From contig JAJRVQ010000197.1 in assembly GCA_024277255.1 (NCBI GenBank), positions 40,991-104,990 of the forward strand: 64,000 bases of DNA, read 5' to 3'. Position 1 is the first letter of the stretch. Every line of letters begins with the position of its first letter. Below the pieces are notes generated by a model. It had not been told where the DNA came from and did not search any database. It saw only the letters and a list, made by a program, of their open reading frames with translations. The DNA is from Acidobacteriota bacterium (lineage in GTDB: Bacteria; Acidobacteriota; Thermoanaerobaculia; Multivoradales; SZUA-115). Of the stretch, positions 1,054 to 45,150 are shown one piece after another. The position numbers were made by a program, and so were the translations under genes.

Positions 1054-2946
1054 CTAGCGCAGCGGCTTGGCCTCGCCGCCTTCGGTCAGCACCCACCAGC
1101 GGTCGGTGGCCAGGGGGGCGAAACTCTGGCTCTCACCGTTGGGCCAGATCACTTCGATGGCCTCCACCGTGGTGGCCTTGCCCAGCCCGAAGTGAATCTC
1201 GGGCGCGTGGGTCGAAAAGTAGCTCAACCCGGAGAGCAGACGGCGTTCCTGGGTGCGACCGCCGGCCGTAAGGAGCACGCGGGCGCCAATGGCATCTCGA
1301 TTGCTCGTCGTGCCCACCAAACGCACCCCAAGCCAATGGCCGCCGGCAGCGCCCTCGTTGTGCAGCAACAAGCCTTGCCCGTCACCGCTCTTCTCTCCTT
1401 CGGTTCCGACCTTCTCTCCGTTGTTGGTCACCAGCAGGTCGAGACGGCCGTCGAAATCGTAGTCGGCGACGGCGAGACCGCGGTGAATTCTCTTGCCCAG
1501 CGCATGAATGCCGGAGGAGACCGACACGTCCTGGAAACGCCCCTCTCCCTGGTTCTCGAAGAGAAGGTTGTCCTGCGCGTTGTCGCCGCCCACCGAGTTG
1601 AGATGGCCGTTGGCGAGGAAGAGATCGAGGTCGCCGTCGTTGTCCAGATCGGCGAAGGCCGTCCCCCAGCCGACGCGGGGCCAGGCTAGCGAAAGCAAAG
1701 CCGGGGAACGGAAATCGCTGGTAAACAGCGCATTGCGCACCTTGCCGTCATTGCTCGACTCGTTGGAGATCAAGCGATAGAAGATGGGCGCCTCGCCGGC
1801 GAAGTTGGTAACGAAGAGGTCCATCAGACCGTCGTCGTCGTAGTCGCCGTAGGCCAGACCCATGGTGCCGTCCGTACTACTCAAGCCGCTGGGGCCCGAG
1901 TCTTCCTTGAAGGTGCCATTGCCCAGGTTGAGATAGAAGCTGTTGGGGTCGGTGTCATTGCCGACGAACAGGTCCGGCCAGCCGTCGTCGTTAAAATCGT
2001 TGAACAAGACCTGCATGCTCTTGTTGCGGTAGGCATCGCGGCCGAAAGACTGGGCGGTGACATCCTCGAAGGTTCCGTCTCCCCGGTTGCGCAGGAGGGT
2101 GTTGGGCAGCCCCGGGAAGGACATCGGGAAACGAACATTCGACGCCTGCTCTTGCCCTTTCAACAAATCGACGTAGCCGGCTAGGTAGAGATCGAGGTCA
2201 CCATCGCGATCGTAGTCACCCCAGGTGGCTCCGCCGTACCAGAAGTTCTCGTCCCGCTCGCCGAGCGGCAGAGCCTTGCTGGTGACGTTCTCGAAGTGAC
2301 CGTTGCCTTGGTTGCGATAGAGAACCGCGCTTCCGAAGTTGGTGATCAACAGATCGGTCCAACCGTCGTTGTCGTAGTCGGCCGCGGCCACCGCCATGCC
2401 TTCGCCCAGATCGCCAACTCCCACCTCCTCGGTGACGTCGGTGAAGGTACCTTCGTCGTTACGGAAGAGAGCGTTGGGCGTATCACCTTCCCCCGCGCCG
2501 TTGACGAAGTAGAGATCCCAATCCAGGTCGCCGTCATAGTCAATCCACGCCACCCCCGAGCCATTCATGCGAATCAAGTGGCGACGGGCAAAGCCCACGG
2601 GATCGGCAAACTCGGAAGGCAGGATCTTTTCGTTGGTGGCCAGCCCGGCAACCGCCCTCTGTTGCGACTGTTGCGTCGGTAGGGCGCACCACCTGGAGCG
2701 CTGGCCAAAATGGACGAAACCGATCTTCGCCTCGGACCAGCGGTCGACGAAGCGTATGCCGGCGGAGGCTTGCTCAGCGCTCGGCGCGCTCCTCTCAACC
2801 TCCCCTGCCGCCGGCGCCTCCGCGGAAGAGGTCGCGGCCAGGCCGGGAGTGGCGGCTACGAGTAGAACCGCCACGAGGGCGGCAAAAAGGTGGAGTAACT
2901 TCGAGCACGAGGAATGCTCGGCGGTGGAAGAATCTAGATGCATCAT
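1054..2946 (-). CDS. secreted FG-GAP/VCBS repeat protein with C-terminal ASPIC/UnbV domain (CRTAC1 family)
   Basis: Repeated DxDxDGxxD / FG..GAP-like motifs (DYDGDLDWDLYFVNG, DYDNDGWTDLLITNFG, DYDRDGDLDLYLAGY, DFNDDGWPDLFVGND, DYDDDGLMDLFVTNF, DLDNDGDLDLFLANG, DYDFDGRLDLLVTNN). C-terminal RDAIGARV...YFSTHAPEIHFGLG...IEVIWPNG. Start trimmed to ATGATG at 2946/2943, ahead of a signal-like LLHLFAALVAVLLVAATPGLA. Confidence 0.85.
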   Translation of the reverse strand: MMHLDSSTAEHSSCSKLLHLFAALVAVLLVAATPGLAATSSAEAPAAGEVERSAPSAEQASAGIRFVDRWSEAKIGFVHFGQRSRWCALPTQQSQQRAVAGLATNEKILPSEFADPVGFARRHLIRMNGSGVAWIDYDGDLDWDLYFVNGAGEGDTPNALFRNDEGTFTDVTEEVGVGDLGEGMAVAAADYDNDGWTDLLITNFGSAVLYRNQGNGHFENVTSKALPLGERDENFWYGGATWGDYDRDGDLDLYLAGYVDLLKGQEQASNVRFPMSFPGLPNTLLRNRGDGTFEDVTAQSFGRDAYRNKSMQVLFNDFNDDGWPDLFVGNDTDPNSFYLNLGNGTFKEDSGPSGLSSTDGTMGLAYGDYDDDGLMDLFVTNFAGEAPIFYRLISNESSNDGKVRNALFTSDFRSPALLSLAWPRVGWGTAFADLDNDGDLDLFLANGHLNSVGGDNAQDNLLFENQGEGRFQDVSVSSGIHALGKRIHRGLAVADYDFDGRLDLLVTNNGEKVGTEGEKSGDGQGLLLHNEGAAGGHWLGVRLVGTTSNRDAIGARVLLTAGGRTQERRLLSGLSYFSTHAPEIHFGLGKATTVEAIEVIWPNGESQSFAPLATDRWWVLTEGGEAKPLR

Positions 2947-3173
2947 GCGAGTGCTCCCAATCATCGGCCAATCATCGACCGTGGACGGCCCCAACCCGCC
3001 GCCGGCGGAAGGTTTCGGGACCTCGACGGCTCGAACGGCAGAGGGCTCTTGCCTGACGGTAGGAGAACCCTTCCGCCCCCTGAACACTATGACAGGAGTC
3101 ATACTCCTGGGAAGCTCTCGGCGCAACAAACCCGCGCCACCCAGCAGCGCGGGAAACTGGCCGCGAGCCGAGA

Positions 3174-3197
3174 CCGGGACGCGCCATCGCGTCCCGG
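3174..3197 (-). terminator. GC-rich hairpin downstream of giant gene
   Basis: CCGGGACGCG-CCAT-CGCGTCCCGG, a perfect 10-bp stem 24 nt after the stop at 3221. There is no clear U-tract. Confidence 0.4.
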
Positions 3198-3220
3198 TCG
3201 GCCCGCGGGCTACGGCGGAT

Positions 3221-6200
3221 CTACTTGCAGATGAAGCCGCGTACTGCGGTGCAAGACAGGTCGTTCCACGATCGGGCGACAAACTGGCCGCCAACGAACG
3301 AGGACCTGGCGAACTCCACGCAGTTCTCCGTGGTTCCACCACTCGGCTGCAAGTCTCCCCAGTTCTCGTAGCCAACCGGAGTGCCATCCATCCAGATCCA
3401 ATTCCCTTCCAACCCCGCATCGCTCAGCCCGATCCAGCTGCCCGGGATGGCCACTGCATCGTCGATCGCAGCGTCCTCGGCGGCATTGAGGATCTTGGTC
3501 AGGTCGAGCCCCTGTGCCAGGCAAGCGGAACGGGCGACCTCCCACTCCACCGCGGTGGCACAGAACTGGTAATCCTGACCGCCGGTGGTGATCGCAACGC
3601 AATTGCAGACATCGCCATCGTCGATCAGACCGTTCTGATCGTTGTCGGAGCCGTCGCAAATCTCCGTCCCGACCTCGCCGAGTTCCCCGGCCTCCACGTC
3701 GCCCGCTTCGAGCGCCATCTCCAGGTCACCGGTGACCACCAGGTCGAGGATACAGGCGTCGAGTAACTCTGGATCGACGATCCCCGCCTCGACACATTGG
3801 CTCTGCGCCCAGGCTACGAGATCGGGATCGAAGTCGGCCCAGCTGACTTCGTTGATGGGGTAGAACTCACCTTCCGGTGGAGCGAAATCCAGCGGGCCTT
3901 GGCCCACGTCATAGTCGAAGAGCGACTCGGCCGGATCGCGGATGATCCAGCCCGCCGGATCGTCGTAGGCAAGGCAGCGGGTCGTCGCGCAATCGTAGAG
4001 TTCGGCGAAGGTGGGGGGCGAAGTGAGCTGCGTGCCGTCGCGCAGTTGGAAGTCATTACTCGGATCGCCATCGAAGTTGCCGAGTACTCCTTCCAGCCTG
4101 CCTGCCAGGTCGGAATCGGGGTGGATCCGCACGCTCATCCAGCTGCCAGCCACTTTGACCCGCACATAGGAGCCCGAGTTGGGCCAGGTCACGGTGTAGG
4201 TTGAGCCTGCGCGTGTGATGACCCCACCGTTGGGCAGGGTGTAGCTCTCGCCATCGGCGAGGGGCACCGCGATGCCCGCCACCATCAGCTCATCGCCGCT
4301 GCCCGGGGGATCGACGTAGAAACCAACCCGGTCGCCGGCCACCCGCATCGCTGCCGCTGTGGTCAAGGAGACTCGGTTGTCGTTCCCGGCCTGACGGGTC
4401 TGGACCTCGAACTCGGTCACCGGGTCGCGGGTCAAGACAACTTCTCCCTTCGCCTGGAAGTCGAACTTCACACCATCGAAGTCTTCGCAGTGAGGATCTC
4501 CCCAACAATCGCCTCCGGTATCGCCGCATTCGAGGCGGAGGGTCACTTCACGGCGGTCCAGGTTGGAGAAGATCTCGATGGGGTACTCCGTGACGCCTCC
4601 GACAGTGCACTCACTACTCAAAGTAACCACCTGATCGCCGTCAATCGGAATGAAACCACCTGGGGGCGATAGCGAGTAGGGCACGTCCACCGACGGCTGG
4701 TAGCCCCACGGTAGCTCAGCGGGGGTTCGATTAGTAATCGTTACTTCGCCGATGAGGGTGACTGGCGGATCGACTACCGAGCCCTTCAGTACCACCACGT
4801 CGGGCTCGACAGAAAAATTCTCGCAACCGACCAAGACGGGATAGGTGTACACCCCACTATCCCCCTCAATCGACAGATTCAACTCAACCCAGAAAGCTGG
4901 GATCGTATCCCCCGCGGTACAATCCACAGTCAACTCGTGTGAGACAGATTCACCAGCTCCGAGGTCGACCGACCCGCTCGGTTGCACGGTCAGCCAAGAG
5001 GGTCCCGTGTCATTGGACAACGTATAGGTCTTGGGCGAGCTACTCACATTCATGGCTTGCACATCGAGCGTGATCGCCGAGCCGATCGGACCCACGAGTT
5101 CAGGTTCCAATGGTGTAATCAGTACCGGTGGTGCTTGCTTGACCTTCAACGGCTGAGCCGTAGACACAATCGGAAAGGCAGACGGGAAGGTGAGATCAAC
5201 AGCCCTAAACTCCCAATCGCCCTCATCGCCAGCAACCGGTACGAAAGTCAGAAGATCCGCCGGAGACAATTGCACGAACTCTGGATCATCGATTCTTCGG
5301 CCCCAGATCTCCAAGCCAGAACTGGGACGGAACCAGTCTTGGAACCAGCTATATTGCCGCTCGCTACGGATCAATGTCACAGGAGAGTATGGAATCTGGC
5401 CATCGATCCACACGGGATCCTCCGAGATCGTGAGTGTCGGTACAAGAGTGTTGACCCGATTGGTGGCAATATTGATTGGATCGGCCTCAAAACTAGTCGC
5501 CGGGCCGCTCTCCCAACCAAACAGCTCGATCAGAGCCTCCACGGATTCTCCAGGTTCAATGGCCTTGAAGGGGAAGAAATCCCATACCAGTGCGTCGCTG
5601 TAACTCGGACTGACGTAGTCTGGATCTGCGGGTCCCAAGAACACTCCAGATGGAAACAAGGCGTGGCTATCGACCGCGATCTGGGTTGCCGCGAAGAAAA
5701 AGTCCATGAACACCAAGAAGTCAAACTTTCCTAGTGGGTCAGCCGGAACTGGCCCAGGATAAAGACTTGCCTTGACGCCCAGTTCAATGAAGGCTCGCGC
5801 CTCGAGGTCCATGTTGGCTGCCTGCAACCCATCGATGTAAGGCGTGGCAGCCGATCCGGTTACCTGCGGATCATCGATTCCGTTGGGAAACTGGAAGCCA
5901 TCCACTTCGTTCCAATCCAAACCTCCGAACAGTTTCGTCGAGTACTCGAATTCAGGTGTGCCAAGTTCGGCGGTGGTACTTGCCTGGCCGAAATCGACCG
6001 TCACTTCCAATCCGGGTTTGAGGTAGGCATAGAAATGGAAGGTTGCCACGGCATAGAGCGGAATAGGAAAGAGGTAGACCCGCGGCAGGACTTCCTGACT
6101 ACATTCGAGTTGCGTCTGCAATCGAAATTCCGGCACAGCCAGATTCATCAGTGCGTCGAATGCGATTGCCAATAGAACCATCTTCCCCCCATCCATCTCG

Positions 6201-8401
6201 ATCTTGAAGGTGCTCGAAGGAGTGAAACTGGGATTGATTGTGAATTGGCACGGATTGTCGGCTTTGGCAGCAGTCGGCGTACCGGGAGCACCTACGGTGA
6301 CTGCTGAGCCGTCCCATGTGCCGAATCCAGCGTTCGCGTAGACGGTAGCAAGCCGTTCCAGAGCGGTGGAATCGAGATCGATATTCAGGCGTTGATAAAC
6401 CCTCCCAAAGGGTGGCACCGTGCCATGAAGGACCAAGGTTTCGGCCAAGATATCCACGCTGGCGATAAGAATAGAGCCAGCGGTACCAAAAGCGACCAAG
6501 TCTCCCACAGCTAGAGCCTCAGTAGCCGGCCCACGCTCGACAGTTAACTGAAGGTAATCGCCCGCAGCCAGAGGATTGACACTCATATCGAGCAACAACG
6601 AGGAATCAAGATCGATGAGCGCCGGATTCACCACCGCTCCCACCGCCACGGAGGCAGCGCCGGGCACGTGAGGCTCGGCACCGTCGGCCGCGACCATCAG
6701 CACGGCAAAGCAATCGTCACACAGCACGGTGGCCAGCCCGTTGGCGTCGACGCTGACCCGGTCGGGGTTACTCGATGTCCAGGCCAAGGTGGTGCCGGCG
6801 GGCACTGGCGCGGGGTTGCCCGCCGCGTCGAACCAGGTTGCCTGAAGCTGTACGACGTCTCCGACGTTGAGCAGCATGGCGGGCGACGGACCGACTTCGA
6901 GGTGGGGCATCGGGTCGACCGACGGCGGTGGTGGCGGAGGAGGATCGACGGTGCCCTGATAGGTCACCTCCAATTCGGGGTTGCCCAGCACTGCTTCGCG
7001 GCTGTTCCAGAAAGTCTGCCCGGTCCCCGCGTCCGCCAGCGCGAAAGTGAGTCTTCCGTCGGCGAGGGCGGCGGAGGCGACGGTGGCAGTCACGTCCAGC
7101 TCCACGATCTCGGTGGGCGCGGTCGCCGGCAGGCTGCCCACCACCATTCCGATCGCCGGCTGGTTGCTCCAAGTGATGAGGCTCTCGTCCCAGACCACAT
7201 TGAGCGGCTGCGTCACCGCCACCTCGGTGGCGACGTAGGTGACGGAGTTCGAGGTCAAACGCAAAACGGCGCTTTCGACCGTACCTGGATCGACCTCGAA
7301 GGCGAGGTAGCTCGCATACTGGCCGGTGCGCGCTCGCAGGACCGCGTTGGTGCCGTAATTCGTGGTCGGGCGAAGGCTGTAGACGTAGGCGTCGGCTGTC
7401 GGCGCGAAGAGTTGAGGCGTTCCCGTACCACCGCCGCCGCCACCACCACCACCACCGCCGCCGCCACCACCACCGCCGCCGCCACCACCACCGCCACCCG
7501 CCGGCGGGGTCAACACCGAGACCGGTCCGGCCCAGGCGCTTGGACCGCCAACGCCCAGGGCACGAATGCGGTAGAGGTACTCGGTGCTCTCGGTGAGGCC
7601 GGTGTCGGAATAGCTTTCGGTCCCCGGAATGAGGTTGGCGATGTTCTGGAAGATGCCGGTATTGTCGTCACTGCGTTCGAGTTCAAAGCCCGTTTCGTCA
7701 ATCGTCGAGGCGTCCCAAGTAACCTGGACCTCGCTGGAGGAGAGGGCACTGGCCGCCAGATTGGCAGGAGGATCAAGAACCGGGGGCGGATTGGTCCCGC
7801 CGCTCACCGCGAAATAGACGCCGGTGAACTTGATGCCCTGGTTGCGACCCGCCTGATAGCGGCCGTGCAACTCGACCCGATAGTAGGGGTAGCCGGAGGC
7901 GATTTCGGTCTCCACCAGGGCCGTTTGCCCCCAGATGCCGGTACCGCTGACGGTACTCGCCCAGGGTTGCCAGAGGTCGGTCCACGGCCCCAGAGGCCCG
8001 TTGCCGCCGGCGATGGTCACCGTCCCCTGTTCGAGGAAGAGCGCCACCACCCAGGTTTGAAAGTGCAAGGTTCGTAGCGCCGGATTGGCGGTGACGACGG
8101 TGCGCAGGTAGCCGTCTTCGCCCGAATGATCCTGGCCGTCGCCAGCGCCGAAGGCGAAGCGCGCGCCGGTTCCGGTCGCGCTGTCGGGCGTCGGGTTCGA
8201 CGCCTTGCGACTCGTGCCCCAGACGTTTTGTGGTTGGCTCCAGCCGTCCAGGCCAGCCGTCGTCGGGTCGGCGGACGACCGGAACCAGGGGTTGCCGATC
8301 AGGTTGTCGCCGGCCAGCGACGGCGCCACGGCGGCACCCGCGGATGCGACGACAGCAAAGATGAGAATGAGTAAGGTCACAAGGGTTCGGTGGCGAAGCA
8401 T
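3221..8401 (-). CDS. giant secreted multidomain protein: jelly-roll/CBM-like, FN3, poly-Gly, DNRLRE/CBM96-like, Big_2, unknown core, Ig-like, VWD, Cys-rich motif, C-type lectin
   Basis: ATG at 8401 with AAGGAG 8 nt upstream, then signal peptide MLRHRTLVTLLILIFAVVASAGAAVA. FN3 (PPANLAASALSSSEVQVTWD...YLYRIRALG). 24 x Gly. DNRLRE-like (PTADAYVYSLRPTTNYGTNAVLRAR...ASYLAFEV). Big_2 (VQLQATWFDAAGNP...WTSSNPDRVSVDANGLATV). VWD (CWGDPHCEDFDGVKFDFQAKGEVVL). CDGSDNDQNGLIDDGDVC. CTLD (WIGLSD..GNWIWMDG..YENW..ENCV..WNDLSC..FICK-stop). Confidence 0.9.
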   Translation of the reverse strand: MLRHRTLVTLLILIFAVVASAGAAVAPSLAGDNLIGNPWFRSSADPTTAGLDGWSQPQNVWGTSRKASNPTPDSATGTGARFAFGAGDGQDHSGEDGYLRTVVTANPALRTLHFQTWVVALFLEQGTVTIAGGNGPLGPWTDLWQPWASTVSGTGIWGQTALVETEIASGYPYYRVELHGRYQAGRNQGIKFTGVYFAVSGGTNPPPVLDPPANLAASALSSSEVQVTWDASTIDETGFELERSDDNTGIFQNIANLIPGTESYSDTGLTESTEYLYRIRALGVGGPSAWAGPVSVLTPPAGGGGGGGGGGGGGGGGGGGGGGGGTGTPQLFAPTADAYVYSLRPTTNYGTNAVLRARTGQYASYLAFEVDPGTVESAVLRLTSNSVTYVATEVAVTQPLNVVWDESLITWSNQPAIGMVVGSLPATAPTEIVELDVTATVASAALADGRLTFALADAGTGQTFWNSREAVLGNPELEVTYQGTVDPPPPPPPSVDPMPHLEVGPSPAMLLNVGDVVQLQATWFDAAGNPAPVPAGTTLAWTSSNPDRVSVDANGLATVLCDDCFAVLMVAADGAEPHVPGAASVAVGAVVNPALIDLDSSLLLDMSVNPLAAGDYLQLTVERGPATEALAVGDLVAFGTAGSILIASVDILAETLVLHGTVPPFGRVYQRLNIDLDSTALERLATVYANAGFGTWDGSAVTVGAPGTPTAAKADNPCQFTINPSFTPSSTFKIEMDGGKMVLLAIAFDALMNLAVPEFRLQTQLECSQEVLPRVYLFPIPLYAVATFHFYAYLKPGLEVTVDFGQASTTAELGTPEFEYSTKLFGGLDWNEVDGFQFPNGIDDPQVTGSAATPYIDGLQAANMDLEARAFIELGVKASLYPGPVPADPLGKFDFLVFMDFFFAATQIAVDSHALFPSGVFLGPADPDYVSPSYSDALVWDFFPFKAIEPGESVEALIELFGWESGPATSFEADPINIATNRVNTLVPTLTISEDPVWIDGQIPYSPVTLIRSERQYSWFQDWFRPSSGLEIWGRRIDDPEFVQLSPADLLTFVPVAGDEGDWEFRAVDLTFPSAFPIVSTAQPLKVKQAPPVLITPLEPELVGPIGSAITLDVQAMNVSSSPKTYTLSNDTGPSWLTVQPSGSVDLGAGESVSHELTVDCTAGDTIPAFWVELNLSIEGDSGVYTYPVLVGCENFSVEPDVVVLKGSVVDPPVTLIGEVTITNRTPAELPWGYQPSVDVPYSLSPPGGFIPIDGDQVVTLSSECTVGGVTEYPIEIFSNLDRREVTLRLECGDTGGDCWGDPHCEDFDGVKFDFQAKGEVVLTRDPVTEFEVQTRQAGNDNRVSLTTAAAMRVAGDRVGFYVDPPGSGDELMVAGIAVPLADGESYTLPNGGVITRAGSTYTVTWPNSGSYVRVKVAGSWMSVRIHPDSDLAGRLEGVLGNFDGDPSNDFQLRDGTQLTSPPTFAELYDCATTRCLAYDDPAGWIIRDPAESLFDYDVGQGPLDFAPPEGEFYPINEVSWADFDPDLVAWAQSQCVEAGIVDPELLDACILDLVVTGDLEMALEAGDVEAGELGEVGTEICDGSDNDQNGLIDDGDVCNCVAITTGGQDYQFCATAVEWEVARSACLAQGLDLTKILNAAEDAAIDDAVAIPGSWIGLSDAGLEGNWIWMDGTPVGYENWGDLQPSGGTTENCVEFARSSFVGGQFVARSWNDLSCTAVRGFICK
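7427..7498 (-). repeat. (GGY)24 homocodon tract encoding 24 consecutive glycines
   Basis: Plus strand reads acc acc gcc gcc gcc acc x5 gcc x3 acc x3 gcc x3 acc x3 gcc acc, with internal 9/18-nt periodicity. It sits in frame in the giant gene between the FN3 and DNRLRE-like regions. Confidence 0.95.
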
Positions 8402-8584
8402 GGCGTTGTTCTCCTTCAGTCTCGCGGCACGGTCCCCCACGCCGAGATCGGCGCGCCGCCCGCTCAACCGACCCGGAGTAGGCCGCGGCGATTTTTTGCG
8501 CACGGGATGAAAAAAACCTCTCTTCGCCATCCACACCGATCGACGGAAGGCAGGCGGGGGTGTGAGAAGATTCCTCGGGGGGAG

Positions 8585-9205
8585 ATGAGTCGCAGGGTGC
8601 ATGCGCCACCGATGAACAACTTCATTCACCGTCGGCTCGGCCGACTCCTGGCGGGTGACCGCGCTGCGGCGGCCTGGCTCTACGACGAGTTCGCGCCCGG
8701 CCTCTATCACCGGCTGACGCTGCGCTACCGCCACGTGGCCGGCGTCGAGCCCGTCGACTTGCTGCACGACGCCTTCGTCTTTTTCCTACGGCCGAACAAC
8801 CGCGCCCTGCGCGAGTTCCTGCATCGGACCCCGCCCGCCGAGTGTTCATCCGCCGCTCTCGAGAAGCGTCTGTGGGACCTTGCCTGCGGCCTGGCGACAA
8901 ACCGAAGACGCTCGGCCTGGAGCCGCCGAGCGGTGCCCATGGCCGAAATTCGAGAGACCACCGAGGAGAGCAACGCCGAGCGCGGCACGATCGCCCGCGA
9001 CTCGCTCAAGAAACTCGACCGCTGCATCGAGGCGGAGACGCAGGAAGGCTACCTCTACTACCAGATGCGCTACGTGGACGGACTCAAACCGCGCCAAATC
9101 GCCGCTGCCACCGGCCAACCCGTGGGCGAGGTCTACCGTCTGAGAAGCGCGCTCGACCGAGCCTTGCGACGATGCGCCGAGCGTCTCGGGCTGTCCACGC
9201 CATGA
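8585..9205 (+). CDS. ECF-type RNA polymerase sigma-70 family factor
   Basis: Region-2-like DLLHDAFVFF and region-4 HTH (LYYQMRYVDGLKPRQIAAATGQPVGEVYRLRSALDRALRRCAERL). The start is ambiguous between ATG 8585 (GGGGGGAG abuts it) and ATG 8612. The stop overlaps the next gene (ATGA at 9202). Confidence 0.75.
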   Translation: MSRRVHAPPMNNFIHRRLGRLLAGDRAAAAWLYDEFAPGLYHRLTLRYRHVAGVEPVDLLHDAFVFFLRPNNRALREFLHRTPPAECSSAALEKRLWDLACGLATNRRRSAWSRRAVPMAEIRETTEESNAERGTIARDSLKKLDRCIEAETQEGYLYYQMRYVDGLKPRQIAAATGQPVGEVYRLRSALDRALRRCAERLGLSTP

Positions 9206-11982
9206 GGTGGTCGATCGGCGTATTGGCGCTCGGCGTCGTCCTCGCTGGCACCGGGGGCTGCCGGAGCGAGAGCCGGCGTGTGCCCTTCCCCATCGTCGTG
9301 CGCGGCCATCAGGATCTTGCGCTGGAGGCCGGAGACGGAGAGGTCACCACGGCGATTCCCCTCTTCGTAGGCTCCGGCGCAACCGCCGGCTTGTGCCTCG
9401 AAGTCCCGCCGACGGTCAATACCAGCTCATGGCTCGCCAGCCTCGACCTGGCGGGCAAACCTCTGGGGCCGGCGGCACCGCCAGCGGCGCGGATCGCGAC
9501 CACGGTCTGCTTCGAGGCCACCCTGCCCGAGGAGCCGCCGCCGGCCGAGACCATGGAGCTGTGCGGCTACCTCAAAGAGGGTGCCAGCGGGCAGAGGCGC
9601 CGCCTGCCCTGCCGGCGCGTGCGCCTGGTCGACCGCTTGGCCTGGGACGATCTGCGCCGCCGGCTCGGCATTGTACTCAGCGAGCAGGCGGCCTCCTCGA
9701 TGGAAGAACTGGCGGTGGCGCTCGATCGGCTGGCCGGCGAGGCGCGCACCGCCTCCCTGCCTCAGCTGGCGGTGCAGATCGACCTGATCACGGTGCACTT
9801 TCTCTCCGTAACCGGCCATCTGCGCGCCGCCGCCGACCGACTCGACGCCCTTCCGGCCTGGCTGGATCAGGGCCCAGCGAGCGATAGTGCCGCCCAGGCG
9901 GCCTACCTGCGAGCGCAGATCGCCCTGCTGGACGAGCGCCGCGCCGACGCCTGGCGCGCCCTCGACACCGCCGACCGGCTCTACCTGCGAACCGCCAACC
10001 CGCAGCGCTTCACCGTCGCCATGCAGCGCGCGGCACTACTCTCGGACGCAGGAGCCGGCCACGAAGCGGTCACCCACCTACGGCGACGACTGCGCCAGTG
10101 TGACGACGCGCAGTGCGATTGGGCACTGCTGGCGGCGGCCCGATTGCAGATGGCGCGGCTCGTCTTGTACGACCCGTTTCGCACCCACGACGAGGTGGAG
10201 GAAGCGCGCCGAAAACTGGCCGATCTTTCCTCGACGACACCTCCAACACGCCGCCTGCCGGCACTGATCGTCGACGCCGCCCTGCAACTGGAACTGGGGG
10301 AAGATCCGGCGGCGACCTTGGCCGCGGCGCGGGCCATGCTGCCGGCCTCCGCCGCAGCGCCGGACCACGACAGCAACCAGGGCTGGATCGTCTGGCTGGA
10401 GGCCAAGGCGGCGCTGGCGCGCGGCGACGGCGATGCGGCGCTCACCGCCTGCCGGCCGCTGGCCGCGAGTGGCGATCGCTCGATGGCTCCCTGGGCTTGG
10501 AGTTGCATCGCCCGCGCTCAGCACGCACGGGGCGAGCTGCGCGCCGCCGACCTGGCTTTCGGCAAGGCGCTCGCCCACCATGAACACACTTCCAGCGCCA
10601 GTCTCGGCCTGTCCCTGGCCTCAGGACTCGGCCCGCAAGCCGACGATGTCGCTCGGGCGGCGCGGGTGGCGGTCGAGCTCGACCAGCCCGAGCGCGCTTG
10701 GCGCTTGCTGGTACGACTCGACCAGCGCTCGTCCCACGAGGGGCGGCGGCGGCGCTGCCGGGAATCGGCGCGCTCACCCGCGGACATGGCGCGCTGGAAG
10801 GAGACCGACAACCAGATCCAGACGGCGCTCGCCGAGCTCAGCGATCTCGCCATGCCCGCTTCGTTGGCGCGCGAGGCCGACACCGAGCCGGTGCGCGACG
10901 CCCTCCAGGAGCGGCTGCAAGAGCTCTGGCGCACCTGGCCCGGCTGCGATGATTCACCGCAACCGATCGCCGACGGCGCCGACTTGCGCGCCTTCGCGCT
11001 CGATGACGAGGTCATCCTGCTCGCGCGACACGACGGCCGGATCACCACGGTCCGCCGCACGCCGCTCGATCGAAGGGCGCTCACCCGGCTGACCCAGCAG
11101 CTTTCGCTCGCTCTCGCCAACCATGATCTCGACGACGAAGAGTGGCGCCGGCGATTGGAGCCGATCGCCGCGGCACTGCTGCCGCCGGAGCTCAACGCTG
11201 CCAGCCCGACCATTGTTTACGCGCTCCACGGTGCACTCCAGGCCATCCCGCTAGCCGCCCTCCCCTTGCCCGCCGGTGCCGGCAAAGCGTGGTTCGGCGA
11301 TCTGGCGACCGTCGCCGTGCAGCCCGCCGGTGCGCAGAGTTCAGAGGCAGACCAGGGCGCCGAGGCCGCACCGCCCCTGTTCGTCGTCGACCCGCTCGGC
11401 GACCTGCCCCACGCCGGCCGTTCCATCGCGGCATACCGCCGCGCCTTCCCCGCCGCTCGCATCCTGCAGCGCGACGAGGCCACCCGCCGTGCCCTGCAGG
11501 ATCACCTCGACCAGGCCACCTGGCTGCATCTCGACGCCCACGCGACCTACGAGGCGGCCTTTCCCGAGCTTTCCAGCCTGCTCCTCGCCGACGGACCGCT
11601 CCGTCTGATCGAACTGGCGACGATGGCTGTTCCGCGACGCTTCGCCAACCTCAGCGGCTGCCGGACCGGCACCTGGCACCCCACCGCCGACAGCGGTCGC
11701 TACGGCCTCGGCGGCCTTATGGCTCGTCTCGGAGTGCCCTGGACGGTGGCGACCCGGGCCTCCCTTCCCGACCGGCTGGCCCGCGACTACAACACCGCCT
11801 TCTACGCGGCGATCGCCGGCGAGGCCACGGCGCCCGCGGCCCATCGCCTCGCCCTCGCCCGGTTGCGGCCGCGGTACCCGGCGGCGGCTTGGGGATCGCT
11901 GCTCTTGCTCTACGCACCACCGAGGGGCGAGCGGGGCGACGACGAGATTGAGCGACGAAAAACGCCCTTTGCCAACTCCTGA
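9202..11982 (+). CDS. TPR-like/CHAT domain protein (caspase-like Cys protease fold) with N-terminal signal/lipoprotein-like peptide
   Basis: Track ORF trimmed to ATG 9202 (MRWSIGVLALGVVLAGTGGC). C-terminal CHAT signature: LFVVDPLGDLP...ATWLHLDAHA (His codon 11539..11541) and FANLSGCRTG (Cys codon 11659..11661). The helical Ala/Leu/Arg-rich middle region is TPR-like. Confidence 0.8.
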   Translation: MRWSIGVLALGVVLAGTGGCRSESRRVPFPIVVRGHQDLALEAGDGEVTTAIPLFVGSGATAGLCLEVPPTVNTSSWLASLDLAGKPLGPAAPPAARIATTVCFEATLPEEPPPAETMELCGYLKEGASGQRRRLPCRRVRLVDRLAWDDLRRRLGIVLSEQAASSMEELAVALDRLAGEARTASLPQLAVQIDLITVHFLSVTGHLRAAADRLDALPAWLDQGPASDSAAQAAYLRAQIALLDERRADAWRALDTADRLYLRTANPQRFTVAMQRAALLSDAGAGHEAVTHLRRRLRQCDDAQCDWALLAAARLQMARLVLYDPFRTHDEVEEARRKLADLSSTTPPTRRLPALIVDAALQLELGEDPAATLAAARAMLPASAAAPDHDSNQGWIVWLEAKAALARGDGDAALTACRPLAASGDRSMAPWAWSCIARAQHARGELRAADLAFGKALAHHEHTSSASLGLSLASGLGPQADDVARAARVAVELDQPERAWRLLVRLDQRSSHEGRRRRCRESARSPADMARWKETDNQIQTALAELSDLAMPASLAREADTEPVRDALQERLQELWRTWPGCDDSPQPIADGADLRAFALDDEVILLARHDGRITTVRRTPLDRRALTRLTQQLSLALANHDLDDEEWRRRLEPIAAALLPPELNAASPTIVYALHGALQAIPLAALPLPAGAGKAWFGDLATVAVQPAGAQSSEADQGAEAAPPLFVVDPLGDLPHAGRSIAAYRRAFPAARILQRDEATRRALQDHLDQATWLHLDAHATYEAAFPELSSLLLADGPLRLIELATMAVPRRFANLSGCRTGTWHPTADSGRYGLGGLMARLGVPWTVATRASLPDRLARDYNTAFYAAIAGEATAPAAHRLALARLRPRYPAAAWGSLLLLYAPPRGERGDDEIERRKTPFANS

Positions 11983-11998
11983 TCGATTGAGGACCGTG

Positions 11999-12898
11999 AT
12001 GAGCGACCAACCCAGCGACCCGCGCAACGACCTACAGGCTGACCTACAGGGTGATCTACAGGGTGATCTTCGGGGCGACGACGAACTCGACCCCATGCTA
12101 TGTCAGATGGCGCTCGCCGACCGCGCCACCGGTCGCCGCATCGAGGGTGCGGAGGATACCGCCGACGATCGCCTTCTCGATGGCTTTCGCCACGGGACGC
12201 TGGCCGCGGACCCGCGCCGCAAGCTCGTCGGGCGGCTGCGCCGTGAGCCCGCTTTGCGCCGCAGGCTGGCGACGCGCGCCGGAGTCGCCCCGGCACCGCC
12301 CCCGGAGGTTCGCGCCCGTATCCTGGCCAAGATCGCACCGGCCAAACCGTCGCCGCGGCGGCGAGCTTGGCTGGCTCTCGCCACCGCGCTGGTCGTCGCC
12401 CTCGGCGTGACCCTCCTTCTCCCACCGAGCGATCTACCGCCGGAAGTCGCCTACAGCGTCGAGGTGCGCGGGATCGCCACCAGTCGCGACCCGTCAAGTG
12501 AGCCGGCCCTGGCCGAGGCCTTCGCCGGCACCACGGTGCGCATCGTGGCCCGCCCCGAGCTAACCCCAGCCACACCGCTGGAACTCGGTCTCTACCGCCT
12601 CGATCCCGGCCGTCTGGCGCGCGTCGCCGAGGCCGCTATCGCCATCGAGCGGCACGGCGGCGCGGTCACGCTGTCGGCCAAGGCTGGCGACCTGATCGCC
12701 GGCGAGCCCGGAGTCCACACCCTCTACCTGGCGGTGGCCCGCCCCGACGATCTGCCGGACAGCATGGCGACGAAAGCCGGTGAAAGACCCGAGGATCGTC
12801 TGGCCGGCGGCGGCCGGCGACGGGTCTACTCGATCACCGTCCGCTTGCTGCCCGAACCTACCGAAGACTCTCCTTACGACGGAGGAACCATGCCATGA
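11999..12898 (+). CDS. single-pass membrane protein, anti-sigma-factor-like topology
   Basis: ATG 11999 is preceded by GAGGA. About 95-aa N-terminal region (LLDGFRHGTLAADPRRKLVGRLRREPALRRRL), TM helix AWLALATALVVALGVTLLL, then about 180-aa outer domain. No HxxxCxxC zinc motif. Sits 17 nt after the CHAT stop and overlaps the next gene by ATGA. Confidence 0.55.
   Translation: MSDQPSDPRNDLQADLQGDLQGDLRGDDELDPMLCQMALADRATGRRIEGAEDTADDRLLDGFRHGTLAADPRRKLVGRLRREPALRRRLATRAGVAPAPPPEVRARILAKIAPAKPSPRRRAWLALATALVVALGVTLLLPPSDLPPEVAYSVEVRGIATSRDPSSEPALAEAFAGTTVRIVARPELTPATPLELGLYRLDPGRLARVAEAAIAIERHGGAVTLSAKAGDLIAGEPGVHTLYLAVARPDDLPDSMATKAGERPEDRLAGGGRRRVYSITVRLLPEPTEDSPYDGGTMP
12029..12076 (+). repeat. 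12-bp coding tandem repeat x4 (DLQA-DLQG-DLQG-DLRG)
   Basis: gacctacaggct / gacctacagggt / gatctacagggt / gatcttcggggc, read directly. Confidence 0.9.
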
Positions 12899-14484
12899 CC
12901 CGGATCCCATCGCCACGCTCCATCCTCTCTACCGCCTTGCTGACCATCGCCGCCACTCTCTGGGCGGCCCCGCTCCTCTCCTCCGAGGTGCATTGGTTGC
13001 GTACCGGCGCGACCTGCGCCGAGCCGGCGCCGAGCGAGAACACCATGGTGCTGGCCTGCGGCGCGGCGGGTCGCTTCTACCTCACCACCGATTCGAACCC
13101 ACCCGCCGTGGCCTGCGCCGCCGAGGCCGCCGGCACCGAGATGGCCGCCTTCTACGCACGATCGAACGTCGGCCCGGTGGGCATCTGTTTCTACCGCGAC
13201 GGCGGACCGTGGGTGGCGGTGGCCGACGTTCGCGGCCAGCGCAGCAAGAACGTCGGTTTTACCGTCTTGCAAAGCGCCGACGGCCTCCTCGATGTGGCGC
13301 TGCTCGACCTCGCCGCGGTCCACGACCGGATGCCGCAGAGAGTCGGCATGCCCAGTGACGCCCACCTGCTGACCGTCCTCTGCGACCTGGCCCAGAGCCT
13401 CGAAGGTGGAGTCGACGAGCCGCCGATCGCTCTCGTTCTACCCTTCGGTCGTTACCTTGAGGCGATGCCGGATTGCGACCTCGACGAAGCCTCTCTCACC
13501 TGCCAGATCGACCGTCTGCTGGCCCACCTGCACAACGCCCACGGCATCCTCGCCATCGCCGCCGCCGGCGATCACCGGGCTACGACCTTTCCCGCCGCGG
13601 CACCCCATGCGCTGGCGGTGGCCTCGATCGATCAAGGCCGCTTTCTCGTCTCGGGCGTGGCCGAGCCCTCGTGGGAATCGCCGCAACAAGCGACCGCGGT
13701 GATGACGGGACTCGGCGTCATGCTCGATCTCAATCGGGCCAATGGGCTGTGGGCTCCTCCCTCCGGATCACCCGTCGCCGCCGGGCTGTTCGCCGGCTGG
13801 CTCGCCGGCACCATCGCCGGCGGCGAGTGGCAGCCGCCGGAGCCCTTTCCTTTCGCCGCGTCGTGGGCGCCCTGGCCGGCGGCCGAGGGCTTCGTCCTCA
13901 CCCTCGACAACGCTCCACTCGCCGGCTCCGCCTTCGCCGGCGCCGACCTTCTCGTGCGCCGCGCTCTCGGCCTCGTGGAGACTGGAGAGCCCCCCCCGCT
14001 GTCCACCCCGGAAACCGTGCTCGTACGTACCGAAACGCCGATCACCCTGCCCGACCACACCCTGCCGTCCATCGTCGCATCACTCAACGACGAGTGGCCG
14101 CCGCTGCCCGATGTGCTGCCGTGTGTACCTTGCGCCAGCGTCAGGCCCCCATCGCCTCCCCCGGCGAATCCGGGAGATCCCGCCACGCCCAGCAGCGACA
14201 CGCTGGTCATCGACCTCTCCCTTTCGGGTTCGATCGGAGGGTTTTACGAGTTGACCGAACTTGCGTTACGAATCGGTGAGACCGTCTACCAACTCGATGG
14301 CGGCGATGACATCGCCCTGCTCTCCGCTTTGAGCGAAGGCACCGCGACCGCCATCGCCATCGCCGGCATCGACTTGGCGAGCCTCACCGCCAACGGCGAG
14401 TCCGCGGGGCTGGTCTTCCTCCTGACCTACAGCGGAACTCCCTTCTGGCATGGGACTCCGCTGTCGATCAGGACGGATGGTTAG
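12895..14484 (+). CDS. secreted protein with degenerate subtilase (S8)-like motifs
   Basis: Signal peptide MTRIPSPRSILSTALLTIAATLWAAPLLS. GILAIAAAGDHRATTFPAAAPHALAVASID resembles the S8 AAGN...PA...V.AV block. APPSGSPVAAGLFAGWLAG resembles GTSMAAPHVAG. Candidate Asp (VALLDLAA) and His (SDAHLL). Family assignment is by eye only. Confidence 0.5.
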   Translation: MTRIPSPRSILSTALLTIAATLWAAPLLSSEVHWLRTGATCAEPAPSENTMVLACGAAGRFYLTTDSNPPAVACAAEAAGTEMAAFYARSNVGPVGICFYRDGGPWVAVADVRGQRSKNVGFTVLQSADGLLDVALLDLAAVHDRMPQRVGMPSDAHLLTVLCDLAQSLEGGVDEPPIALVLPFGRYLEAMPDCDLDEASLTCQIDRLLAHLHNAHGILAIAAAGDHRATTFPAAAPHALAVASIDQGRFLVSGVAEPSWESPQQATAVMTGLGVMLDLNRANGLWAPPSGSPVAAGLFAGWLAGTIAGGEWQPPEPFPFAASWAPWPAAEGFVLTLDNAPLAGSAFAGADLLVRRALGLVETGEPPPLSTPETVLVRTETPITLPDHTLPSIVASLNDEWPPLPDVLPCVPCASVRPPSPPPANPGDPATPSSDTLVIDLSLSGSIGGFYELTELALRIGETVYQLDGGDDIALLSALSEGTATAIAIAGIDLASLTANGESAGLVFLLTYSGTPFWHGTPLSIRTDG

Positions 14485-14533: not shown

Positions 14534-15877
14534 TCAATAGGCCGCGGCTCGTGCCCGGGTGCGCCCCGTGCGCCGAAGTTCCTCGGCCATCGACTCGATT
14601 TCCCGCAGGTCCTGCACCATTTCATTCCAGCCATACCACAGGGCATAGTCGGGGTTGGCGTGGAAGGTGCCCTGGAAGGCTCGCATGCGGTGCTTGAGAT
14701 GCATGGTGAAGAGGCGGTTCTCGATCGGGGTCGGCGAATCGTGGAAGGTCAGTAGATCGGGGAAGGCGTAGGCGTAGCTTTCCGGCTTCTCCAAGACGCC
14801 GTCGCGATAGAGCGCGGCGATGACCCGGATCGCCTTTGCCAGCAGACGATCGATCTCCTGGATCATCTGATCACCTTTCTCCAGCTCCGCGCGTGCGAAG
14901 TTGTCAGAGTGACATTCGCTGCAAACTCCGAGCATCTTCGTGCGCTCACGGTCGAAGTCGTGCTTGGTGAGGCGGGCAAGGTCCGCCTCCTGAACCACAT
15001 CTAGCCTTGCCGTCGGGTTGCCCTCGGGGTCGAGCACGCCGAGAGCCTGAAGGATCGTCACTCGGTCGGCCCACCACTCTTCGTCTTCGCCCGGATAGGG
15101 CGCTAACCCATCGGTACGCACGGCGAGGAAGCCCCAGGCGGTTCTCACCTCGTGGTCGCCTTCGACCATGTGGCAGGTCTGACAGGTCGGAGCAGAGGCG
15201 TTTTCCGGAAGGATCCCCTTCTGCTTCAGGTCGTAACGCGCCCCATGCTTGGAGGTCGAGTACATCTCCCATTGCGGATGATCGAACCCCATGTGGCAGC
15301 TCATGCAGGCCTGAGGCTGGCTGGCCTCCGCCACCGAAAAGCCATGCCGCGTATGGCAGGCGTCGCAGGAAGCGAAACCGAAGCCCGAGCCGTTTTTCTT
15401 GAGTTCGGCGATCTCCTCGTCGCTCTTCAAGCCGAGCTTGTGACAGCCTCCGCAGCCCTTCATGCCGTCGATCAACGCCGACGGCTTCCAGTGCGTGGTC
15501 GGCATCGCCTTCATGACCGCCCAGGCCTTGGCGTGCTTGCCTCTCGTGAACTGAGCCAAGCGCTCCTCGTGGCACGAGCCACACCGGTCGGCGGTCACCG
15601 TCACCAGATTGGCGACGTCGAATTCATTGACGTGGTCACCCAGGTGGCAACCGGTACAGCCAACGTCGTTGGCTCGATGGGCGCTGGTGTCCCAGTCTTC
15701 TACGATCCCGGGAGTGATCCCCCTATGACAGTCGATGCACTGCCGGCTGGCAGCGACGGATTCGGACCTTGCCTCGCCGTCACCCGTCTGCGTGCAAGCG
15801 CTCAGGGGCAGAACAATAATCGCGAACAAGAGAAAACATGGATGGCAAAAGCGCTGGGAGCACTCGAAAAAACTCAC
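14534..15877 (-). CDS. octaheme c-type cytochrome, hydroxylamine oxidoreductase (HAO) family, lipoprotein
   Basis: Eight CxxCH motifs (CIDCH, CTGCH, CGSCH, CGGCH, CDACH, CMSCH, CQTCH, CSECH). HAO-like block CDACHTRHGFSVAEASQPQACMSCHMGFDHPQWEMYSTSKHG. GTG start with AAGGAG 7 nt upstream. Lipobox LPLSAC. Confidence 0.85.
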   Translation of the reverse strand: MSFFECSQRFCHPCFLLFAIIVLPLSACTQTGDGEARSESVAASRQCIDCHRGITPGIVEDWDTSAHRANDVGCTGCHLGDHVNEFDVANLVTVTADRCGSCHEERLAQFTRGKHAKAWAVMKAMPTTHWKPSALIDGMKGCGGCHKLGLKSDEEIAELKKNGSGFGFASCDACHTRHGFSVAEASQPQACMSCHMGFDHPQWEMYSTSKHGARYDLKQKGILPENASAPTCQTCHMVEGDHEVRTAWGFLAVRTDGLAPYPGEDEEWWADRVTILQALGVLDPEGNPTARLDVVQEADLARLTKHDFDRERTKMLGVCSECHSDNFARAELEKGDQMIQEIDRLLAKAIRVIAALYRDGVLEKPESYAYAFPDLLTFHDSPTPIENRLFTMHLKHRMRAFQGTFHANPDYALWYGWNEMVQDLREIESMAEELRRTGRTRARAAAY

Positions 15878-16139
15878 GACTCAGCTCCTTGGTCGATGAA
15901 AACAAACACCTGTAGATATAGTCAGTATAGCAGCCCGTGGTGAAAGTCGTCCGTCGGCGAGAGTGAGGTTCGTCGAGGATTTTCCAACGCAGAGTCCCGG
16001 CCAGAGAGCCGCTCGGTGCCAGGGTAAGTTTCACCACGGGCCGATAGGCGACCGTCGAGATTCTAGCCATGACCGCCATCACGTGCGCCTCGGTCTGCGC
16101 CACCAAGATCCCTGGCTTCCCGAAATAGGGTGAGGCCTC

Positions 16140-20191: not shown

Positions 20192-20530
20192 TCAGTGATT
20201 GCCGTCCGGATCCATCCCGGAGCCAGCTTCAACCGGGGTTCCGTCCGGATCCATGCCGGATCCCGCCTCGACCGAAGCGCCGTCCGGGTCCATCCCGGAA
20301 CCGGCTTCGACCGGTTGCCCATCCGGATCCATACCGGAGCCGGCCTTGGTCCATCCACTCACCCGACTCAACCAGCTAAGCCAAATAAAATGAGAGACTT
20401 CCATCACCCGCACAAAAGTTGACTCCGACTTCTCCACGGTCGACTGGGCGGTCGCGGAGAGCGGCACCAAGAGCGCCGCGAGAGCAAACCAGAGGACGAC
20501 CACGAGAACGAATCGTTGCTTTCTGACCAT
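20192..20530 (-). CDS. small secreted protein with 4 tandem 13-aa repeats (AGSGMDPDGxxVE)
   Basis: ATG 20530 with GGAGG 5 nt upstream. Signal peptide MVRKQRFVLVVVLWFALAALLVPLSATA. Trp-rich segment HFIWLSWLSRVSGW. Then KAGSGMDPDGQPVE AGSGMDPDGASVE AGSGMDPDGTPVE AGSGMDPDGNH-stop. Confidence 0.7.
   Translation of the reverse strand: MVRKQRFVLVVVLWFALAALLVPLSATAQSTVEKSESTFVRVMEVSHFIWLSWLSRVSGWTKAGSGMDPDGQPVEAGSGMDPDGASVEAGSGMDPDGTPVEAGSGMDPDGNH
20201..20347 (-). repeat. 39-bp tandem repeat, about 3.8 copies (coding)
   Basis: Units 20201..20239, 20240..20278, 20279..20317 and a partial 20318..20347, sharing ccgtccggatccat[c/g]ccgga. Confidence 0.9.
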
Positions 20531-45073: not shown

Positions 45074-45150
45074 TGGTCGGGGCGAGAGGATTCGAACCTC
45101 CGGCCTCACGGACCCGAACCGTGCGCTCTACCAGGCTGAGCTACGCCCCG
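45074..45150 (-). tRNA. tRNA-Pro (anticodon CGG), CCA encoded
   Basis: 77 nt, folded by hand. Acceptor CGGGGCG/CGCCCCG, D-arm GCTC-AGCCTGGTA-GAGC, anticodon arm CACGG-TTCGGGT-CCGTG, variable AGGCC, T-arm GGAGG-TTCGAAT-CCTCT, A-CCA. Confidence 0.93.

Follow-up and report, generated by a model that had tools for sequence, protein, structure and literature searches.

Sigma factors of the extracytoplasmic function (ECF) type rank among the main signalling routes of bacteria, and the trigger of the site-1 cut in their anti-sigma factors is known for few systems. To our knowledge, a periplasmic caspase-like protease has so far been proposed as such a trigger only for DdvA. This protein of Myxococcus xanthus is a single-pass anti-sigma factor with a periplasmic TPR-CHAT region that carries a His–Cys dyad, and it is proposed to cleave itself before RseP acts (PMC11506125). 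DdvA-like proteins have been reported only in Myxococcota and in one Comamonas (PMC11506125). The signal and the cleavage of DdvA remain unproven, and its protease and substrate belong to the same chain. Here, we describe a cassette of four genes, encoding a sigma-like protein, a CHAT protein, a single-pass membrane protein and a secreted subtilisin (S8)-like protein, in a 64,000 nt stretch of DNA (the window) from an Acidobacteriota bacterium (GCA_024277255.1, contig JAJRVQ010000197.1, 40,991–104,990, forward strand).

DdvS/DdvA is the closest characterized system. In both cases an ECF sigma factor would be under the control of a periplasmic TPR-CHAT protein with a His–Cys dyad, the anti-sigma factor is single-pass, the proposed order of cleavage is CHAT and then RseP, and the signalling is the system's own, independent of any CRISPR (clustered regularly interspaced short palindromic repeats) effector. 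The two nevertheless differ in architecture. DdvA joins a CHCC-zinc anti-sigma domain and the TPR-CHAT region in one polypeptide, whereas our cassette encodes the two separately and its anti-sigma factor lacks zinc ligands. In none of the 56 loci that we collected do the anti-sigma domain and CHAT share a protein; where CHAT is fused, it is joined to the sigma factor and is otherwise a separate, lipoprotein-like protein. A fourth, S8-like gene is present, no defence island lies near, and the cassette is found in Acidobacteriota, whereas DdvA belongs to Myxococcota. Profile searches of the PDB detected no sequence similarity to DdvA.

The second relevant system is ECF54 of Actinobacteria. In its passages on this group, PMC8999054 describes adjoining genes for carboxypeptidase-, subtilase- and CHAT-domain proteins with a 4Fe-4S protein nearby, describes no anti-sigma factor, and gives proteolytic control as a proposal from context. 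An ECF sigma gene beside genes for CHAT and subtilase-like proteins is common to ECF54 and our cassette. Compared by this described gene context, however, ours is acidobacterial, has an anti-sigma gene and has no detectable carboxypeptidase domain. CHAT is not mentioned in the main text of the ECF re-classification.

Proteolytic release of an ECF-type sigma factor is also known inside the cell. In CalpL/CalpT/CalpS, the sigma factor is set free when a protease cuts the partner that binds it; systems of this kind work in the cytoplasm and respond to RNA or cyclic oligoadenylate from a CRISPR effector. In type III-E Craspase, Cas7-11 with the TPR-CHAT protein Csx29 cleaves Csx30, which is bound to RpoE, in a cytoplasmic, CRISPR-guided reaction (PMC10028731). 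An earlier reading of the window, made by a model from the sequence alone (the sequence-only reading), had taken Craspase as its analogue. The likeness lies in a protease that frees an ECF-type sigma factor by cleaving its partner and in the TPR-CHAT architecture of Csx29. The analogy is nonetheless loose: Craspase is cytoplasmic and RNA-guided, whereas the CHAT protein described here is predicted to be extracytoplasmic and so could not directly reach a cytoplasmic sigma-binding domain. The same reading was right that the locus has no cas genes or CRISPR array; neither was found in the window, which holds no CRISPR-typical tandem array, and the four proteins have no PADLOC match. Finally, a fused subclade of our family shares with IutY/ECF243 and ECF52/53 a sigma–transmembrane–periplasmic topology that would need proteolytic release (PMC8999054). 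The extension of those proteins is no protease but an anti-sigma or carbohydrate-binding domain (PMC8999054); that of the fused subclade is a caspase-like protease, and an anti-sigma factor is still encoded separately.

The concept of a CHAT protease of the envelope that governs an ECF sigma factor without CRISPR is already published. The sequence-only reading had proposed such a link for this locus, and our results fit it, but it was not new, given DdvA/DdvS (PMC11506125) and the CHAT and subtilase proteins described with ECF54 (PMC8999054). What is new here is the four-gene architecture, a divergent sigma lineage (compared with ECF54 by described context), a probable pseudo-subtilase partner, and sigma–transmembrane–CHAT fusions in a sister clade. 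We report that the four-gene order recurs across the family and that the CHAT dyad is never lost. We see about an even chance that the genes encode a four-component envelope-to-cytoplasm signalling cassette specific to Acidobacteriota, in which the CHAT protease would drive proteolysis of the anti-sigma factor from the periplasmic side.

Results

Organization and conservation of the cassette

The four open reading frames (ORFs; sigma-like, CHAT, gene 3 and gene 4) are co-directional and tightly packed on the plus strand (Table 1). Gene 1 and the CHAT gene overlap by an ATGA at 9202–9205, as do genes 3 and 4 at 12895–12898, where GGAGGA lies 8 nt upstream of the gene 4 start. Between the CHAT gene and gene 3 there are 16 nt, with GAGGA 5 nt 5' of the gene 3 ATG. 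This tight translational coupling, by ATGA overlaps and a 16 nt gap with Shine–Dalgarno sequences, supports the cassette as one unit. The sequence-only reading had placed the four ORFs, both overlaps and the codons of the CHAT His and Cys correctly; the gap that it gave as 17 nt is present at the length stated above, and the ORF that it assigned to gene 1 (8585..9205) exists but more likely starts at ATG 8612 than at ATG 8585, judging from the N-termini of homologues and the 197 aa gene call in the database. The G+C content is ~65% over the whole window and 69–72% in the four-gene region.

We collected 56 non-redundant loci, the window included, using as seeds the CHAT domain and, independently, the sigma factor, with metagenomic contigs added; loci were annotated by hidden Markov model scans in all six frames. 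The seed that worked was an alignment of the CHAT domain. A scan of genome contigs with the single CHAT protein found nothing, and no conserved stretch of the full-length alignment was usable. Of the 56 loci, 34 have the order sigma–CHAT–gene 3–gene 4 and 48 have sigma beside CHAT, and the CHAT seed and the sigma seed agree in this. This recurrence is far beyond chance, and the conserved gene order on which the sequence-only reading had staked its proposal is thus found. Most incomplete loci are at contig ends; true exceptions are few (L022, L043, L061 and L034/L067), and gene 4 is absent altogether from L034/L067. In L022, a CHAT gene of the family (3991–6774) stands without a sigma or anti-sigma gene. 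It is preceded by a divergent gene (2634–3881, minus strand) that resembles gene 4 at its ends and closes with Cys-rich repeats, so that the locus has the look of a degenerate or rearranged variant.

Almost every locus is acidobacterial, from Thermoanaerobaculia (Ca. Multivoradales among them), Holophagales or the subdivision-22 isolate Mor1; a few are from metagenome-assembled genomes labelled Delta- or Gammaproteobacteria. When 1.84 billion representatives were searched exhaustively with a profile, 164 relatives of the CHAT protein appeared at E ≤ 1e-30, with looser matches numbering 8,057 down to 1e-10 and 37,844 down to 1e-3. Since the matches beyond 1e-30 are presumably generic CHAT/TPR proteins, the CHAT family appears discrete. 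Genes flanking the module vary between loci and are conserved only among close relatives. Two paralogous copies of the module per genome were seen in Mor1 (CP011806; L032 and L062, at 2.37 and 4.41 Mb) and in the pairs L047 with L052 and L045 with L069. Mor1, being an isolate genome, could provide an experimental host.

In 12 loci (L005, L006, L012, L018, L019, L021, L024, L025, L033, L036, L041 and L071), the sigma factor and CHAT form one ORF with the order sigma–transmembrane–TPR–CHAT. Here, sigma4 continues directly into the hydrophobic stretch that serves the split forms as signal peptide; the Leu of the lipobox is lost and the Cys is retained. Three fused sigma–CHAT representatives were also present in the exhaustive search. 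The fused loci make up one clade, within which identity between the CHAT parts has fallen to 69%; this points to a single fusion event that has been kept since. In L028 (6850–9144), genes 3 and 4 are one ORF and the signal peptide of gene 4 is absent. The fusions tie the sigma factor to CHAT and the anti-sigma factor to the S8-like protein, and they indicate a topology with the sigma factor and the anti-sigma domain inside and CHAT and the S8-like protein outside. Together with the conserved order, these Rosetta-stone fusions uphold the earlier idea that the four genes are a functional unit.

A divergent ECF-type sigma factor

The sigma and anti-sigma proteins both fall below threshold in the curated libraries, so profile and structure evidence was required for their identity. 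The gene 1 protein scores 18.3 bits against Sigma70_r4_2 of Pfam (cut-off 25.7) and 15.5 bits against TIGR02937 (cut-off 42.9), and in the window it passes no curated Pfam or NCBIfam cut-off; its weak best family matches are TIGR02989 and PF07638 (Rhodopirellula/Verrucomicrobium-type). The family, collected from public genomes and metagenomes, comprises at least 145 clusters at 90% identity and is tightly related (E < 1e-63 across the best 120 clusters). Its members match the Pfam models Sigma70_r4_2 (26/60), Sigma70_ECF (14/60) and Sigma70_r2 (10/60), with only part of the family attaining E < 1e-4. Against PDB sequences, the family profile finds sigma factors only, and the ECF sigma factors score best.

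The AlphaFold2 (AF2) model of gene 1, built from a 60-sequence alignment, has a mean pLDDT (predicted local distance difference test score) of 89.9. Its best Foldseek matches in the PDB are all ECF sigma factors, with probability 1.00: sigmaE/RseA (1or7), AlgU/MucA, SigL, SigK, SigW and SigH. The sigma4 half of the model superposes on sigma4-only structures with TM (template modelling) scores of 0.76–0.84 and a root-mean-square deviation of 1.7–2.5 Å. The two domains sigma2 and sigma4, ~200 aa and no sigma1.1 or sigma3 are those of the ECF (group 4) fold. As judged from this modelled structure, gene 1 encodes a real but divergent ECF-type sigma factor. The model and the family profile agree on the ECF identity that the sequence-only reading had assigned.

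The exported TPR-CHAT protein

The CHAT domain of gene 2 is recognized by Pfam PF12770 at residues 653–888 (E = 2e-22; 80 bits against a 24-bit cut-off). N-terminal to it are ~500 residues of helical repeats, and the family profile matches TPR proteins. A phmmer search of PDB sequences with the CHAT protein gave nothing useful, and the family profile found only TPR designs there, with no DdvA, Csx29 or separase match. The His–Cys dyad, called intact in the sequence-only reading with its conservation named as a check, does not vary in any homologue (Table 1).

The hydrophobic N-terminus aligns to the transmembrane segment of the sigma–CHAT fusions and ends at Cys20 in a lipobox-like sequence. 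Measured against the lipobox pattern [LVI][ASTVI][GAS]C, the T-G-G-C of the window is non-canonical, and canonical forms occur in close relatives; the relatives show L-I-A-G-C, L-A-G-C or L-S-G-C, with the Cys kept in 30 of 36. Besides the active-site Cys, about 11 more are conserved in the exported part among the 36 homologues, which is consistent with an extracytoplasmic location of the mature protein. From the signal/lipobox sequence, the conserved Cys residues and the transmembrane segment of the fused forms, the CHAT protein is predicted to be exported and extracytoplasmic; the earlier description of it as signal/lipoprotein-like fits this prediction, with the correction that the lipobox of the window is non-canonical.

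Following the membrane segment, the CHAT protein has a motif P.P.VVRGHQ (9275–9310, residues ~26–37) that resembles LP..AY.V.VRG[LI]A of gene 3 (12422–12470, residues ~142–158). This common juxtamembrane VRG motif may be a recognition or cleavage site, or a common first beta-strand. Homology of the two periplasmic domains, which the motif had prompted us to consider, was rejected as unproven (hhalign probability 4.6%).

A putative anti-sigma factor without zinc ligands

Gene 3 has no Pfam match. The best PDB match of its family profile is RslA of M. tuberculosis (3hug_B), the anti-sigma factor of SigL, at E = 0.02. Seven of eight members match NCBIfam NF052375 'anti-sigma factor' (best E = 1.5e-7), and four of eight match PRK13920. 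All 33 homologues have one transmembrane segment at about residues 90–140 followed by an exported domain of ~150 residues, and the periplasmic domain in the window is likewise ~150 aa. This N-terminal helical anti-sigma domain with one transmembrane helix is the class I layout, at weak scores. The HxxxCxxC ligands of zinc-binding anti-sigma (ZAS) domains are missing from the whole family: the corresponding helix of RslA aligns to non-liganding residues, with R/L...P..R family-wide. Gene 3 is best read as a class-I anti-sigma factor without zinc, with both its profile alignment to RslA and its NF052375 matches supporting the earlier proposal of an anti-sigma-type membrane protein that lacks the ZAS motif. 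A 12 nt tandem repeat at 12032–12069 encodes a DLQG repeat in its cytoplasmic N-terminus, an insertion absent from all aligned homologues.

The S8-like protein

The window copy of gene 4 has no match in Pfam or NCBIfam and no useful phmmer match to PDB sequences. Its family profile, however, matches subtilisins (E = 2e-4), with AAAGN placed on AAAGN155 and G-S-S on G-T-S221; hhalign of the family with subtilisin BPN' aligns the same core, the AAAGN region, and Pfam Peptidase_S8 is matched by four of 12 members. In the window and its closest relatives the oxyanion Asn is replaced by Asp, and the Ser by Pro or Ala (Table 1), so that the canonical Asp–His–Ser triad with oxyanion Asn is broken in the window. 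As a Pro stands at the catalytic Ser and an Asp at the oxyanion Asn, gene 4 of the window most likely encodes a non-catalytic pseudo-subtilase. The secreted S8-like protein of the sequence-only reading is S8-like at the family level, but the copy in hand is without the canonical Ser and Asn. An HGW motif after the gene 4 Asp was rejected as the catalytic His, because its spacing is that of the non-catalytic His39 of subtilisin; His157 is a better, unconfirmed candidate. The AF2 model of gene 4, from eight sequences, has a pLDDT of 47 and is too poor to confirm the S8 fold; its Foldseek matches carry no meaning and were disregarded.

The divergent neighbour and the intergenic region

Upstream of the cassette, a gene for a giant adhesin-like protein is transcribed in the opposite direction. 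This neighbour is conserved only in the closest relatives, L001 and L004, and lies outside the conserved core; in another subclade, an SLH/GH5-like protein takes its position. An intergenic element with an A-tract, GCCTACTCCG and a GC hairpin is found ~40–75 nt upstream of the start codons of the surface proteins in both adhesin-type contexts (L001 ~7150–7200, L004 ~7210–7260, L037 ~6270–6330) and SLH-type contexts (L005 ~4080–4130, L019 ~3280–3330). The element may be a sigma-dependent promoter or an operator. As a classical ECF −35/−10 pair its spacing is unconvincing, and Rfam finds no known RNA in the intergenic region. The adhesin-like gene is a candidate target of the module sigma factor with limited support; the regulon suggested in the sequence-only reading gains from the common element and loses from a neighbour conserved so narrowly.

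Ahead of the sigma gene itself, a TAnnnT box (TAGGAT, TAAGAT, TAGAAT, TAGACT or TACGCT) is seen 6–12 nt before the start codon in L002, L009, L011, L012, L013, L016, L020, L023, L030 and the fused clade. These boxes suggest a housekeeping-type promoter, and no autoregulated ECF promoter, with transcripts whose leader is very short or absent.

Table 1. Positions of the cassette, its diagnostic sites and other features of the window
Feature	Position	Strand	Remark
Gene 1, divergent ECF-type sigma factor (sigma2 + sigma4; modelled)	8585..9205	+	likely true start ATG 8612, giving 197 aa
Gene 2, predicted exported helical-repeat (TPR-like) CHAT caspase-like protease, 926 aa	9202..11982	+	
CHAT protein Cys20, end of signal/lipobox-like N-terminus	9259–9261	+	
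CHAT catalytic His780	11539–11541	+	invariant, 36/36 homologues
CHAT catalytic Cys820	11659–11661	+	invariant, 36/36 homologues
Gene 3, putative single-pass anti-sigma factor, 299 aa	11999..12898	+	
Gene 3 putative cytoplasmic class-I anti-sigma domain without Zn ligands	about 12164–12283	+	
Gene 3 transmembrane helix	12365–12421	+	
Gene 4, secreted subtilisin (S8)-like protein, 529 aa	12895..14484	+	
Gene 4 Asp111	13225–13227	+	Asp invariant, 26 homologues
Gene 4 His157, candidate catalytic His	13363–13365	+	His kept in 23/26
Gene 4 Asp226 in place of oxyanion Asn	13570–13572	+	Asn in 23/26
Gene 4 Pro293 at catalytic-Ser position	13771–13773	+	Ser in 23/26
Giant secreted adhesin-like protein (fn3, CBM96/DNRLRE, VWD, C-type lectin)	3221..8401	−	Pfam and NCBIfam; signal peptide from ATG 8401
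Conserved intergenic element: A-tract, GCCTACTCCG, GC hairpin	8440..8500	−	upstream of divergent surface-protein gene
Large FG-GAP/ASPIC-UnbV repeat protein	1054–3420	−	not conserved beside module elsewhere
Multihaem c-type cytochrome (Multi-haem_cyto, DmsE-like)	14534–15877	−	not conserved beside module elsewhere
Tandem repeat, 39/78 nt, about 3.7 or 1.9 copies	20201–20346		
tRNA gene	45077–45150		

Discussion

In the mechanism that we propose, the anti-sigma factor encoded by gene 3 would keep the sigma factor at the inner membrane. In the periplasm, the TPR-CHAT protein would associate with the outer domain of gene 3 and the S8-like protein and sense an envelope or protein cue. CHAT would then act as the site-1 protease and cut the periplasmic part of the anti-sigma factor; in the fused forms it would additionally cut its own juxtamembrane linker. 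A housekeeping site-2 protease of the RseP type and cytoplasmic proteases would subsequently release the sigma factor, which would activate its targets, such as the divergent surface-protein gene. In the window subclade the S8-like protein would most likely be a non-catalytic partner, either a sensor, a scaffold or a pseudo-substrate. CHAT is favoured as the active protease because its catalytic centre is the only one that is never lost, whereas the Ser and Asn of the S8-like protein are lost in the window subclade. There is a precedent in DdvA, where a periplasmic TPR-CHAT region is proposed as the anti-sigma site-1 protease and dependence on RseP was shown after its removal (PMC11506125). 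The sequence-only reading had envisaged a protease cascade in the envelope; the exported CHAT protein with its intact dyad fits that picture, and the cascade is doubtful in the window because the S8-like protein has probably lost its catalytic Ser.

Several points weigh against this mechanism. The anti-sigma assignment of gene 3 rests on weak scores (the PDB match given above and NCBIfam matches under curated cut-offs). The sigma–CHAT fusion arose once and counts as a single Rosetta-stone event, and an internal start in the fused ORFs may also give a separate CHAT protein. Housekeeping-type −10 boxes seem to precede the sigma operon, with no obvious autoregulated ECF promoter. In DdvA, the autoproteolysis that would depend on CHAT is undemonstrated, so that the precedent is likewise a hypothesis (PMC11506125). 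Most relatives, moreover, have an apparently intact S8 triad, so that their subtilase could make the site-1 cut instead.

This last point leads to an unlikely arrangement in which the roles are swapped: the S8-like protein, or an unlinked protease of the DegS, Prc or CtpA type, would make the site-1 cut, and TPR-CHAT would be a sensor or scaffold or would process something else; the window subclade would depend on another protease. Serine proteases are the usual site-1 enzymes for anti-sigma factors. Asp, His, Asn and Ser are retained in the S8-like motifs of most relatives (23/26), the L028 fusion joins the S8-like protein to the anti-sigma factor, and Prc and RseP act on IutY (PMC8999054). 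However, gene 4 has been retained in the window subclade despite the loss of its catalytic Ser and oxyanion Asn; L034/L067 do without gene 4, and the CHAT dyad is invariant in every homologue. Rather improbable is a division in which genes 1 and 3 are the sole regulators and CHAT and the S8-like protein are outputs driven by the sigma factor, for example in maturing or shedding the giant adhesin or S-layer-type proteins. Effectors are often encoded within ECF operons, and large surface proteins lie upstream of the module in two subclades; context alone cannot separate regulators from targets (Casas-Pastor et al., PMC7826278). Against such a division, the CHAT gene is flanked by the sigma and anti-sigma genes, with its translation coupled to that of the former; a mere target would hardly be expected to persist throughout a clade as a covalent sigma–transmembrane–CHAT protein; and conservation of the surface-protein neighbours does not extend to the family as a whole.

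By analogy with Csx29/Csx30/RpoE and DdvA/DdvS (PMC10028731, PMC11506125), the module could also be an antiviral switch in which CHAT frees the sigma factor to turn on a defence regulon. We regard this as very improbable. Its only hint of a defence context is in L002, where genes for a 671 aa TIR-domain protein and an AAA_15/AAA_21 ATPase (2208–4223 and 15337–15915) lie near the module. The lack of PADLOC matches and of a CRISPR array noted above speaks against it, as does the periplasmic placement predicted for the CHAT domain. The neighbours in the window are the adhesin, the multihaem cytochrome, a hydrolase and dihydroorotate dehydrogenase (DHODH), and flanks vary between loci. The proposed envelope cassette, with CHAT as the site-1 protease, remains our preferred reading.

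For the sister clade, we tentatively suggest a further step, although we doubt it more than we credit it. The sigma–transmembrane–TPR–CHAT protein could be a self-processing, membrane-tethered sigma factor that unites sensor, protease and transcription factor in a single chain. CHAT autoproteolysis would license intramembrane cleavage and the separate anti-sigma factor would be a second lock; the window would then encode this machine as two parts whose translation is coupled.

Conclusions

The gene 1 family defines an ECF-like sigma lineage that is overlooked by present Pfam and NCBIfam thresholds, and the cassette extends the association of CHAT with sigma factors to a poorly studied, environmentally abundant phylum. 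As the protease, the anti-sigma factor and the sigma factor are separate proteins, trans-cleavage is directly assayable, and the sister clade offers the sigma factor itself tethered to the protease. If the self-processing scheme is true, this would be the first case of direct coupling, across the membrane, between a sigma factor and a caspase-like protease, and the cassette of the window would be a natural 'split DdvA', with protease and substrate separate.

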